From a virus (Duplodnaviria > Caudoviricetes), in IMG/VR virus record IMGVR_UViG_3300011425_000005, positions 1 through 50,769 of that record: a DNA stretch of 50,769 bases; one strand, written 5' to 3'. Shown in pieces: positions 42,145 through 45,753 of the stretch. The notes under the pieces were generated by a model that saw nothing but the letters and a program-made list of their open reading frames with translations, was not told where the DNA came from and did no database searches. The stretch's first letter is position 1, and each line of letters opens with the position of its first letter. A program made the position numbers and the translations under genes.

Positions 42145-42234
42145 TGGAGGAGAGAGTGGGATTCGAACCCACGGTACCGGTAAAGGTACAACGGTTTTCA
42201 AGACCATCGCCATAAACCTCTCGACCACCTCTCC
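42145..42234 (-). tRNA. tRNA-Ser (TGA)
   Basis: GGAGAGG acceptor, CT-TGA-AA loop, long variable arm, GTGGG-TTCGAAT-CCCAC, encoded CCA. Confidence 0.93.
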
Positions 42235-42251
42235 TTGGATATGAAAGTATA

Positions 42252-43070
42252 CTAGAATGGTACAAAAAATCCTATACGATATGTAATGCTATCCTTGAAC
42301 TTAGCATGCTCATTTACTTTATTAGCTGTTTCTCTATCTTTGCCTTGTATTTTTATCTTGTGGGTATTTTCCCATCCAGCTAATGCTCTAATTCCGAAAT
42401 TACGATCAGTAAGATATTGAACGCCAGTATTTAATCTTATTGTAACTACACGATTTTTATATTGGCTTTTAGTATGTGCAAATCTTTGAACTGGCACATT
42501 ATATTCGTCATGCAATACAATATTTGCTTCTCCAATTTCAAACAGGTCACACTTCGTTTGGCTTCTTAGATGCCCTAAGCCCGCTGATCCAATAAGATTT
42601 AGATTCTTTTTCTCATTGATTGGTAAAAACCCCATAATATTTATATTAAATCCTGAAACCTTTGATCTTGCGTTAATAAAGTTAGTTATACTATTGAAAC
42701 CATGCAAGCTGTCAATTAATTTATTGCCAAATAAAAATAATCCTTTATTGCCATATTTGGAATTAATTTTTGAATCGGATAGCTCATATCCTGCCTCAAC
42801 GCCAAAATATTGATTCATTTTATATCCTAAAAAAACATTTAATGATGTATAAAATGGGTCTTGAAAAACATTATTTCCAAAATTTCTTTTGAATTCCATT
42901 CGTCTAATCTTGGTATCTGCTCCTGCATATGCATCTAGATTATAATGGACTTCAAATGCTAGGCAGGATTGTACAGCCATAGGCAATGCAACAAACATTA
43001 AAGATATTGCCGATTTTATTCGACTCGCGTTAGATATAGCTATTGACTTCTCTGTCATTTTATTCTCCAT
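42252..43070 (-). CDS. Outer-membrane beta-barrel protein (OmpA-TM-like)
   Basis: Signal peptide, YAGAD, FLGYKMNQYFGVEAGY, GVQYL..RNFGIRA...WE, terminal YRIGFFVPF with BAM-type Phe. Confidence 0.85.
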   Translation of the reverse strand: MENKMTEKSIAISNASRIKSAISLMFVALPMAVQSCLAFEVHYNLDAYAGADTKIRRMEFKRNFGNNVFQDPFYTSLNVFLGYKMNQYFGVEAGYELSDSKINSKYGNKGLFLFGNKLIDSLHGFNSITNFINARSKVSGFNINIMGFLPINEKKNLNLIGSAGLGHLRSQTKCDLFEIGEANIVLHDEYNVPVQRFAHTKSQYKNRVVTIRLNTGVQYLTDRNFGIRALAGWENTHKIKIQGKDRETANKVNEHAKFKDSITYRIGFFVPF

Positions 43071-43173
43071 TTAATATTTAAGTTAGAAACAATTGAAGTG
43101 TAATTCATTTTTAAACGTTTGGATATAGGTATGTTAGTTGATAAATTATAATATTTTTAATATACTATCTATA

Positions 43174-43245
43174 ATAGTGTGCCATAGGTTTTTATGTTAC
43201 TTTTGATATCTAGCCAAACAGTACAATAGTTCTATGGCACATTAT
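43174..43245. repeat. Inverted repeat with ~44-nt spacer
   Basis: ATAGTGTGCCATAG (43174-87) / CTATGGCACATTAT (43232-45). Confidence 0.6.
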
Positions 43246-43249
43246 GTAT

Positions 43250-43329
43250 GACTTTATAGCTTAGGCCTGTTAAAGCGTTAGTGTTAAAAAACTAAAGAAC
43301 CCAGGTTAGAATCCCGGGTAATGCCACCA
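43250..43329 (+). pseudogene. Degenerate tRNA-like element
   Basis: TAGCTTAG..AAAGC D-arm, TTAGT/ACTAA stem with 8-nt loop GTTAAAAA, GG-TTAGAAT-CC, 3' ACCA; mismatched acceptor. Confidence 0.6.
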
Positions 43330-43368
43330 TTACTAATTAAAAATATTAGAAAACCTTTATTATAAGAT

Positions 43369-43397
43369 TTGATTAATAAAAGTCTTTTAGCTATATT
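43369..43397 (+). promoter_or_regulatory. Sigma70-like promoter upstream of the structured RNA and terL
   Basis: TTGATT-17-TATATT. Confidence 0.5.
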
Positions 43398-43407
43398 ATA
43401 AAATCGA

Positions 43408-43576
43408 GCTATATAGGCAGGATTACTTACGATAGTCCACTCTCTCGGCTTGGCCGTCTATGGGAGAAAGAGTCACTGAACGGCTTCTTACTAGGATTTT
43501 CAAACGAGCTCCTTTCTCTTTGTTGGTCCTAGAATGGTCGCATTAACCAAGAGAAATGCTCAGTTGTCTATATAGC
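43408..43576 (+). ncRNA. Unassigned ~170-nt multi-junction structured RNA upstream of terL
   Basis: 12-bp closing stem and five internal stems forming an almost linker-free four-way junction. Confidence 0.7.
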
Positions 43577-43616
43577 ATTTCTTGCTTTGATATCTACCTA
43601 CCATTAACATACGTAT

Positions 43617-45242
43617 ATGACTTATGAAGAAAAGGACTTTTTTAGTGAAATATTGTCTCGTGCTGATGCAGAGACTTCTCTTTACGCATTCACGCAGCAG
43701 GCTTGGCCAGAGATAGAGGGTGAGTTCCAATTCATACCATCTTGGTATCTCAAGGATATGTGTGAACACTTAGAGGCATTACATAGAGGAGATATAAAAG
43801 ATCTAATTATAGCCATTCCTCCTAGAACAACTAAATCTACTATATGCTCAGTTATGTTTCCATCTTGGACTTGGCTTAAAACTCCTGGAGAAAGGTTCTT
43901 ATGCTTCTCTCACTCTGAAGATCTTGCTATAGAGCAGGCAATAAGGCATAGAGATATTATCTCATCTGAGTGGTATAAGTTGAGATGGGGAGATAGATAT
44001 GACCTTAAAAATGATCAGAATCAAAAAACTAAGTTCTCAAATACTAAAGGTGGATATAGAATTTCAAAAGGGGTCAATAGTAAGGCAACAGGGCGTGGCG
44101 CAACAATCCTTATTGCAGACGATATGAATAATGCTAGAGAATCTGACCTTGAAAGAGAGAATACAAATCTTATATGGAGCACTTCATTATCATCTCGTAT
44201 GAATGATGCCAGTAGAGATAGAAGGCTTATCACAGCACAAAGAACGGGACCTAATGATTTAATAGACTTCTTGCTTAATGGTAAAGGCGCTAAAAGCTGG
44301 ACTTACATGATGCTTCCAATGGAATTTGAACAGAAAAGGCGTTGTGAAACTATTGTATTGCCTTCTACTACACCTTTGAAGTGGAAAGACCCAAGAGAGA
44401 AAGAAGGTGAAGTACTTTGCCCAATTAGATTCAATAAGGTAGCTCTTGATAGGTTAAAGGAAGGTTTTAAATCTGACTATCTAATTGCTACTCAGCTTCA
44501 ATTGAATCCTACCATACCTGATGGTGGGTTATTCAAGAAATCACACTTCCAATGGTGGAAGGCAGAGAAGCCTCCAAAGATATTAAAAATTATTGCATCA
44601 TTCGATACTGCCTTTAAGAAAGAAGGCTCAGAGGAACAAAATAAAAGCCGATCTTATTCAGTATGTACGATGTGGGGAGTCTTCAGGGATGATTTCGGTA
44701 TATCGAATATTATATTGCTAAACATGTGGCGAGACAGGGTTGAGTATCCAGAATTAAGAAGAATTGCTCAAAATATTGCAAAGAATTACCGATATAACGG
44801 AACAGATACAGATACTGTTGCTAAGAAATGCATACCTCCTGATATGATTATCATAGAATCTAAAGCTACTGGAGACCCGCTAAGGCAGGACCTTAAAAGA
44901 GCAGGGGTTAATACTGTTGGATTTGACCCCTCTCCATATGGCGGTAAAATTAGACGCGCAAGCCTAATAACACACCTTGTTGAAGCGGGAAGGGTTTGGG
45001 TTCCAGCATCTGGTCCGAACTATATTAGACTATTGCCATTTGCTAAGAAGTTCGTAGATGCATGTGCTGCATTCCCACAAGATCCTGCATCCAAAGACAT
45101 CGTGGATACATTCTCTCAAGTTCTATTAAAAGAGATTAAGAATCAAGAATTGCAACATCCAGGAGACCCTGTTGAAAAGAAAACAAGGCGTAAGAGAGAT
45201 CCTAAAGATGATAATATTTATGGTGTGGATAAATATAATTAA
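43617..45242 (+). CDS. terL: Terminase large subunit
   Basis: Walker A IAIPPRTTKS, TGRGA-ILIADD Walker B, nuclease SFDTAF, IESKATG, DIVDTFSQ. Confidence 0.95.
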   Translation: MTYEEKDFFSEILSRADAETSLYAFTQQAWPEIEGEFQFIPSWYLKDMCEHLEALHRGDIKDLIIAIPPRTTKSTICSVMFPSWTWLKTPGERFLCFSHSEDLAIEQAIRHRDIISSEWYKLRWGDRYDLKNDQNQKTKFSNTKGGYRISKGVNSKATGRGATILIADDMNNARESDLERENTNLIWSTSLSSRMNDASRDRRLITAQRTGPNDLIDFLLNGKGAKSWTYMMLPMEFEQKRRCETIVLPSTTPLKWKDPREKEGEVLCPIRFNKVALDRLKEGFKSDYLIATQLQLNPTIPDGGLFKKSHFQWWKAEKPPKILKIIASFDTAFKKEGSEEQNKSRSYSVCTMWGVFRDDFGISNIILLNMWRDRVEYPELRRIAQNIAKNYRYNGTDTDTVAKKCIPPDMIIIESKATGDPLRQDLKRAGVNTVGFDPSPYGGKIRRASLITHLVEAGRVWVPASGPNYIRLLPFAKKFVDACAAFPQDPASKDIVDTFSQVLLKEIKNQELQHPGDPVEKKTRRKRDPKDDNIYGVDKYN

Positions 45243-45257
45243 TGATATATTAAGGCG

Positions 45258-45343
45258 GTACTCAGTAGCTCAGTTGGTAGAGAGGAGTTAATGTTTTAAC
45301 ACTGCGTTATTCTGGTCGTGGGTTCGAGTCCTACCTGAGTACA
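45258..45343 (+). ncRNA. tRNA-like RNA with aberrant extended anticodon arm
   Basis: TACTCAG/CTGAGTA acceptor, TAGCTCAGTTGGTAGAG D-arm, GTGGG-TTCGAGT-CCTAC T-arm; ~28-nt anticodon region with no canonical 7-nt loop. Confidence 0.7.
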
Positions 45344-45345
45344 TT

Positions 45346-45421
<76 letters not shown>

Positions 45422-45627: not shown

Positions 45628-45753
45628 ATTAATTAAATCCTTCTTTTTATTAAAAATAACAAAGAATAGAGGGTACAATAAAATCATTAATTTGTCTAAT
45701 TTAATATGCTACTATCATGTTATATTTTGCAAATTTTAATTTTGGAGAAAAAA

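Follow-up and report, generated by a model that had tools for sequence, protein, structure and literature searches.

A conserved structured RNA candidate with a four-way junction and a pseudoknot, encoded directly upstream of terL in two related tailed phages

Directly 5' of terL, a tailed-phage genome from IMG/VR carries a 169-nt element that, judging from comparison with one relative, is very likely a real and selectively maintained folded RNA of about 170 nt, encoded on the + strand and seen in two related phages. An earlier note, drawn up from the first genome, had proposed a four-way-junction RNA at this place, and the fold is borne out by compensatory changes in the second genome (L001), where 11 of the 14 base pairs that vary are still paired. 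The reading that we favor, tentatively and at a probability of about 0.42, is that the element is an accessory small-RNA gene in a variable islet of tRNA and other small-RNA genes flanking terL. This reading derives from the sparse distribution of the element (2 of the 182 sources searched), from its absence from the relatives G001 and G002, and from the tRNA genes that relatives carry at the same spot.

The window, meaning here the whole stretch of DNA that was analyzed, is an entire IMG/VR record of 50,769 bp, rated 91% complete. Contigs from two other metagenome runs, X2 and X3 (different studies; freshwater sediment and soil), are identical to it wherever they overlap, so the sequence is real and an assembly artifact is excluded; run X4 gave only two short unlike pieces and run X5 none, with no new variants of the element. 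There is one copy of the element per genome in the window and in L001, and in the window it sits inside a 546-nt intergenic region (43071-43616). The features referred to below are as follows.

42252-43070, - strand: outer-membrane beta-barrel protein gene (Pfam OMP_b-brl and OmpA_membrane domains), divergent from terL
43369-43397, + strand: sigma-70-like promoter TTGATT-17-TATATT, its -10 hexamer ending 10 nt before P1
43408-43576, + strand: structured-RNA element, 169 nt, directly 5' of terL
43408-43419/43565-43576, + strand: P1, 12 bp with one G-U, 5' strand GCTATATAGGCA
43420-43425/43433-43438, + strand: P2, hairpin GGATTA/TAGTCC with an invariant 7-nt loop CTTACGA
43439-43443/43469-43473, + strand: P3, ACTCT/AGAGT, with a variable inner extension
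43452-43457/43480-43485, + strand: pseudoknot GGCCGT/ACGGCT
43475-43479/43560-43564, + strand: P4, ACTGA/TCAGT, four pairs invariant and one C-G pair becoming U-G in L001
43491-43498/43525-43532, + strand: P5, 8 bp, CTAGGATT/GGTCCTAG (listed earlier as 6 bp, 43491-43496/43527-43532)
43503-43508/43516-43521, + strand: P5b, inside P5, with an invariant loop CTCCTTT (43509-43515)
43513-43524/43545-43556, + strand: alternative pairing, present in the window
From 43533, + strand: invariant linker AGAATGGTC, just 5' of P6
43540-43544/43555-43559, + strand: P6, GCATT/AATGC, loop AACCAAGAGA, one G-C pair becoming G-U in L001
43560-43576, + strand: 3' strands of P4 and P1
43577-43583, + strand: T-rich tail ATTTCTT (ATTTATT in L001), at which sequence conservation stops
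About 43582-43619, + strand: candidate terL promoter TTGCTT-17-TAACAT-6-ATG, picked out by eye and not part of the RNA
43617-45242, + strand: terL (phrog_38, E = 1e-71), its ATG at 43617 lying 40 nt past P1, as the earlier note had it
L001 2709-2737: sigma-70-like promoter TTTACA-17-TAAAAT, which also ends 10 nt before P1
L001 2748-2916: the L001 copy of the element, 169 nt

The TerL protein of the window carries a nuclease-type C-terminal domain, and its gene is followed, in order, by two tRNA-type genes, a convergent small ORF, a 296-aa ORF and the portal gene. The 296-aa ORF (45706-46596, + strand) has no Pfam or PHROG match, and no tblastn match at E <= 1e-4 in G003, G001 or G002, despite the genomes being otherwise syntenic. 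The beta-barrel protein encoded on the other side of the intergenic region (42252-43070) is 60% identical in G003 and about 24% identical in G001 and G002, where it occupies different positions. Scanning 49 window ORFs against PHROGs turns up a replication initiator, a RecT-like protein and an RNA ligase, and no phage RNA polymerase.

All the helices previously listed for the element are recovered, both by a direct check of the sequence and by an inverted-repeat scan, and P1 to P4 do abut, with C43474 as the sole unpaired base of the junction. Eleven of the twelve P1 pairs are invariant between the two genomes and one is A-G in L001. In P2 two pairs swap between U-G and U-A, leaving 12 of 12 cells paired. 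Four pairs of P3 are invariant and one is broken in L001; its inner helix, as aligned by eye, reads CTC/GAG in the window versus CGGG/CCCG in L001, and its apical loop holds the 5' strand of the pseudoknot. The 3' strand of the pseudoknot (43480-43485) comes immediately after the 5' strand of P4, so the two helices abut and could stack. This pseudoknot, proposed earlier from the window, covaries: all six of its pairs are kept in both genomes through one double change (G-C to C-G) and two of wobble type. P5 reads CTAATCAT/ATGATTAG in L001, four double changes and one single change away from the window. The invariant loops are CUUACGA, CUCCUUU, AGAAUGGUC and AACCAAGAGA. A second pseudoknot, of the H type and likewise invariant, could be formed by TGGT (43535-43538) with ACCA (43546-43549), a pairing noticed by eye. 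The alternative TTTCTC/GAGAAA pairing that the earlier note had suggested fares less well, losing two pairs in L001 through changes that are not compensatory.

The helices were defined from the window alone, which makes L001 an independent test of them. L001 is a complete record of 51,293 bp with direct terminal repeats, and its terL is 89% identical to that of the window. Four-fold degenerate sites in terL are identical at only 76 of 179 positions (42%), so neutral sites are near saturation, and the 75% identity of the element (128/170) therefore means that it is under constraint. Its G+C content of 44-46% compares with 26% in the upstream flanks. Aligning the intergenic regions gives a sharply bounded conserved block that starts about 20 nt ahead of P1 and stops 7 nt beyond it; the remainder is mostly diverged, apart from a second conserved hairpin farther upstream, and the spacer between element and terL (40 nt in the window, 84 nt in L001) cannot be aligned.

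Over the 50 pairs of P1-P6, P5b and the pseudoknot in the two genomes, standard pairs occupy 97 of 100 cells, as against 36-46% of cells in a control that slides the partners by 1-3 columns. Fourteen of the pairs vary: three are double-changed and still paired, eight change on one side by way of G-U, and three are broken, of which two belong to L001 (P1 pair 8 and P3 pair 5) and the third, a P5b pair, to the window. When the same number of paired positions is mutated at random, about 13 broken pairs are expected versus the three observed (P ~1e-5), and a second null that uses the observed share of transitions gives P ~3e-5. Owing to an alignment gap at column 120, just two of the four double changes in P5 enter this tally, so that the full 8-bp helix contributes two further double changes and one single change. 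The covariation rests on two sequences, for which tree-aware statistics are inapplicable, and a shuffle control has little power on a two-row alignment: the observed percentage of paired cells is reached by 31 of 500 shuffles, and the covariation score by 58. Read as + strand RNA, 49 of the 50 pairs form in the window and 48 in L001; read as - strand the counts are 46 and 42, and it is the G-U pairs that make the + strand the preferred one.

Predicted folding energies, on their own, would make only a weak case for the element. The + strand of the window copy has a minimum-energy fold of -52.2 kcal/mol (z = -3.09; 2 of 200 shuffles as good) and the - strand one of -46.3 kcal/mol (z = -2.49), while the L001 copy by itself reaches -45.8 kcal/mol (z = -1.44; 17 of 200 shuffles as good). 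With flanks included the signal is gone (z = -0.48 and +0.38). The minimum-energy fold of the window copy includes P1, P2 and P5 and replaces P3, P4 and P6, three helices that are missing from the corresponding fold of the L001 copy as well. The 8-bp P5 is present in both folds, as CUAGGAUU/GGUCCUAG in the window versus CUAAUCAU/AUGAUUAG in L001.

A promoter roughly 10 nt upstream of P1 had also been claimed, and a site is indeed present in the window at that distance. It is a pattern match, found at the same offset in both genomes despite diverged surroundings, and both genomes conserve ATAAA[AT]TCGA in the gap from the -10 hexamer to P1. Since promoter-like sites are no commoner in this AT-rich region than in its shuffles (5 found vs 3.9 expected in the window, 7 vs 4.1 in L001), the shared position, and not the match itself, carries the weight. 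No intrinsic terminator is found on the + strand 3' of the element in the window or in L001, just the T-rich tail; a transcript from the element's promoter should therefore reach terL, which would also fit a 5' leader. Among the sequencing runs searched, no RNA run contains the region, and transcription of the element is therefore inferred. A small ORF was considered and dropped, none being common to the two copies. Two further sequence features of the intergenic region were likewise set aside: a pairing of the terL start with a far-upstream region (inverted repeat I4 of the window) has no counterpart in L001, and the repeat TTTGATATCTA, found at 43202 and 43586, does not exceed chance expectation genome-wide and has no second copy in L001.

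The search of Rfam suggested in the earlier note returns no known-family match for the element, as no family overlaps it even at E <= 10; tRNA alone reaches its gathering score in the window, and does so at other positions. ARAGORN calls no tRNA or tmRNA at 43408-43576. Its matches and those of the Rfam tRNA model fall outside the element, at 42145-42234, at 45258-45421 and, weakly, at 43250-43326. A covariance model built for the element (R1) finds it in the window and L001, 2 of 182 sources searched, a distribution that leaves out closer terL relatives known as protein (P0001, 90% identical; P0002, 81%; P0003, 76%; P0004, 74%; P0006, 72%; and P0007). The same model finds the element nowhere in the complete genomes G001 and G002, whose terL products are 57% and 56% identical to that of the window and whose portal proteins are 45% and 48% identical, and it is absent from the region upstream of terL in L085. 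Other routes agree: blastn of the full intergenic region against a phage collection yields nothing beyond the window and the L001 contig; nhmmer over 164 loci yields no further copies; three conserved blocks used as exact patterns against IMG/VR viral contigs retrieve L004 (which is the L001 contig) and chance matches that R1 rejected; searches for loci seeded with terL in viral and metagenome contigs, one of them seeded with P0003, add no copies, and searches of genome contigs give no terL relative. The two carrier genomes are syntenic throughout, and for that reason the position of the element beside terL is uninformative either way.

Relatives of the same close clade (56-74% terL identity) carry tRNA genes where the window and L001 carry the element, in four of the five cases below.

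L088/L005: tRNA-Tyr, ending 25 nt before the terL ATG
L007: tRNA-Asn upstream of terL
L086: tRNA-Ser and tRNA-Pro, then three structured units, upstream of terL
L006: two tRNAs, on the opposite strand
L085: nothing at that spot

These loci suggest that in this clade the region next to terL serves as a docking place for small RNA genes of various kinds. Several other sequences in these regions were observed along the way. In L086 (2103-2405, + strand) the three tandem units between tRNA-Pro and terL are non-tRNA structures of about 85-95 nt without an Rfam match, each preceded by AGTTT[AG]TGG and ending in NCCA; unit 1 has a T-arm-like hairpin, while units 2 and 3 are long hairpins (z = -3.6 and -2.4). 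The second conserved hairpin of the window (43179-43240, + strand), with a promoter-like site at 43138-43166 and no Rfam match, has a conserved loop segment CTTT[TC]GATATCTAGCCAA and a 10-bp stem in which, compared with L001, two changes are compensatory and one is of wobble type; it may be a small RNA of its own or belong, as the 5' end, to a longer transcript. A weak tRNA-like sequence (43250-43326, + strand), scored at 31 bits by the Rfam tRNA model and not called by ARAGORN, has two mismatches in its acceptor stem, an anticodon loop of 8 nt and GCCACCA at its end, and is absent from L001. Downstream of terL, directly before tRNA-Asn, a tRNA-shaped gene (45258-45343, + strand) bears a 24-nt insert in the anticodon region, so that its anticodon is not assignable; at the position of this pair L001 has tRNA-Asn alone.

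As an accessory small-RNA gene, the element would be transcribed from the + strand by its own sigma-70-type promoter into an RNA of about 170-180 nt starting a few bases before P1 (near 43405). The RNA would fold into the four-way junction of P1-P4, with the loop-to-junction pseudoknot stacking on P4 and the long P5 arm presenting the invariant CUCCUUU loop. As no terminator follows the element, the RNA would probably arise as the 5' portion of a transcript that reads through, and would later persist as a stable folded RNA; its end may lie near 43583, or the transcript may read through into terL. It would act in trans, its invariant loops engaging a protein or RNA partner. Partners were sought with Pfam and PHROGs among the neighboring ORFs and the ORFs unique to the window and G003, and no RNA-binding or RNA-processing domain was found, with the single exception of the RNA ligase, which is also encoded by G001 and G002. 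The element would thus be cargo, carried by some members of the clade and missing in others, like the tRNA, tRNA-like and hairpin RNA genes of the islet. Its independence from terL is argued by the lack of conservation in the spacer and in an alternative 3' hairpin, and by a possible promoter belonging to terL itself.

The main rival, which we consider possible but doubtful, makes the element a cis-acting 5' leader of the terL mRNA: a switch responding to a ligand or protein, a stability element, or a processing "punctuation" signal that would set the 5' end of the mRNA, as upstream tRNAs may do in the relatives. The element lies on the same strand as terL and a short way upstream of it, a promoter-like site comes right before it, and no terminator-like site separates the two; the neighboring gene on the far side points away from terL, which must therefore have its promoter somewhere in this intergenic region. 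Aptamers typically show this kind of complex junction, with a pseudoknot and loops that do not vary, and the accessible part of PMC10690425 reports 14 structured-RNA candidates from IMG/VR that lie upstream of a putative large terminase domain. What a leader would also need is a conserved expression platform, and there is none: the spacer differs in length (40 vs 84 nt), and the alternative 3' hairpin weakens from -11.1 kcal/mol in the window to -4.1 in L001, on account of which a conserved terminator/antiterminator switch was dropped. The two pairs lost from the TTTCTC/GAGAAA alternative in L001 count against a leader in the same way. The earlier note's suggestion of a terL switch accordingly finds nothing here that links the element to control of terL.

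The start of terL bears on the same question. A Shine-Dalgarno-like tetramer precedes 35 of 42 window ORFs and is lacking at terL, as it is in 15 of the 16 loci where an in-frame ATG could be placed (24 were tried, and the distant starts are uncertain). Initiation at terL would then be unusual and could depend on an upstream RNA, as a leader would have it; at the same time there is no ribosome-binding site for such a leader to sequester, and the relatives with 56-74% identical terL, equally without a Shine-Dalgarno sequence, manage without the element. The candidate terL promoter downstream of the element has the same arrangement as TTGCTC-18-TACCAT-6-ATG in L085 (about 780-833) and TTGCCC-17-TACCAT-6-ATG in L086 (about 2430-2482), and a scan of the loci finds a TAnnnT hexamer at -12 upstream of terL. 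The promoter scan did not flag the site at 43582, whose -35 hexamer matches at 3 of 6 positions. Taken together, these sequences suggest that the terL mRNA may be leaderless and transcribed from a promoter of its own. If that promoter is real, the element is a separate unit upstream of it.

A new class of catalytic RNA, self-cleaving or otherwise, that processes the small-RNA/terL transcript is improbable. A multi-helix junction with one covarying pseudoknot and possibly a second, invariant unpaired blocks, and adjoining tRNA and tRNA-like genes that need processing would all suit such an RNA. Still, no cleavage site can be proposed, a distribution of two genomes is unlike that of known ribozyme classes, and no ribozyme family is found by Rfam at E <= 10 (hammerhead, twister, twister-sister, pistol, hatchet, hairpin and HDV-type included). 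An HDV-like fold was looked for by eye and rejected, since P5 starts with C-G and not the G-U of a cleavage site and no crossing P2 is present.

More improbable again is an element that works as DNA, whether a pac or cos site, an origin, a set of protein-binding inverted repeats or a small inverted-repeat mobile insertion. Terminal inverted repeats of 12 bp, a sharply bounded conserved block among diverged flanks and a place beside terL, where pac sites are frequent, are what one would look for in such an element. The compensatory changes in internal helices speak against it, as do the one-sided changes, which keep a G-U pair on one strand and amount to a C-A mismatch on the other (48 vs 42 of 50 pairs in L001). 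The element is moreover single-copy in each genome, shows no visible target-site duplication and is not at the contig ends, and the direct terminal repeats of G003 lie elsewhere.

The earlier note had also placed the element in a "terS slot". This is an interpretation that stands for distant relatives only (about 36% terL identity), in which TerS is encoded directly upstream of terL: in Roseobacter phage CRP-901 and many marine contigs an annotated 162-aa TerS overlaps the terL start. Upstream ORFs in the window's own clade have no small-terminase family match, nor have the 49 window ORFs scanned against PHROGs, and a profile of the distant-relative TerS has no match in the window, in G003, G001 or G002, or in nine further loci. 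The idea of a slot is thus not groundless, but the absence of a recognizable TerS is common to relatives that also lack the RNA. In L008 (46% terL identity) the gene just upstream of terL (1415-2356, + strand) encodes an RNA polymerase sigma factor (phrog_351, E = 9.5e-51).

A packaging RNA, either a pRNA-like motor cofactor or an RNA that replaces the small terminase subunit or helps TerL recognize DNA, is unlikely and the least probable of the readings: its size near that of phi29 pRNA, its place adjoining terL, the missing TerS and invariant TGGT and ACCA blocks that by eye could in principle pair between molecules are set against the lack of an Rfam match, against small terminase subunits so diverse that a failed search does not mean absence, and against G001 and G002, which have homologous terL and portal genes and lack the RNA anywhere, and L085, which lacks it upstream of terL, so that it is not a general part of this packaging machine. 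Nothing, then, ties the element to packaging as the earlier note had proposed. Were this reading true, terminase-type tailed phages would gain their first example of a packaging RNA.

Comparison with known systems begins with phi29 pRNA, a phage-encoded RNA of similar size (about 170 nt) with a multi-helix junction. The element shares all three properties; it differs in having no Rfam match, in belonging to a phage whose terminase has a nuclease-type C-terminal domain, and in being absent from relatives with the same motor genes. The SAM-I riboswitch aptamer is a four-way junction with a loop-to-junction pseudoknot, and the element resembles it in its P1-closed four-way junction, pseudoknot, invariant junction and loop nucleotides and covarying stems. 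The pseudoknot of the element, however, joins other parts of the fold, no riboswitch of Rfam matches, and there is no conserved terminator or ribosome-site platform.

The tRNA islets of phages offer a closer likeness in setting. The species 1 and 2 RNAs of T4 are stable non-tRNA RNAs encoded in the phage tRNA-gene islet, and the element in its turn sits where relatives carry same-strand tRNA genes by terL, present in some genomes and not in others. It is like a tRNA in having a long terminal helix made from its 5' and 3' ends and four arms that abut as in a cloverleaf. It is unlike one in its length of 169 nt, its want of T- or D-loop motifs and of an encoded CCA, its seemingly own promoter, and in going unrecognized by ARAGORN and the Rfam tRNA model.

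The 14 candidates of PMC10690425 share with the element their data source (IMG/VR contigs) and their class of position; as described in the accessible part of that paper they are defined as lying <=25 nt from the start codon, and the element ends 40 or 84 nt before terL. Being absent from Rfam, the element probably represents an undescribed RNA family, though it may be among those published candidates. Of the earlier claim of a new class of noncoding RNA, the part that stands is that no Rfam family accounts for it; the putative class is known so far from two genomes. The two-genome distribution limits the present value of the element. If confirmed, it would be a new family of complex-folded phage RNA with a four-way junction, at least one pseudoknot and several invariant loops.

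GOLLD and ROOL are borne by phages or prophages, often near tRNA genes, and ROOL averages 581 nt, according to the accessible part of PMC5737381. The element likewise is phage-borne, lies near tRNAs and has a complex fold with a junction and pseudoknot; ROOL is more than three times its size, neither family matches it in Rfam, and it is known from two genomes alone. GOLLD, ROOL and the stable RNAs of T4 have resisted functional explanation, and a small, tractable element with clear boundaries could offer a way into their study.
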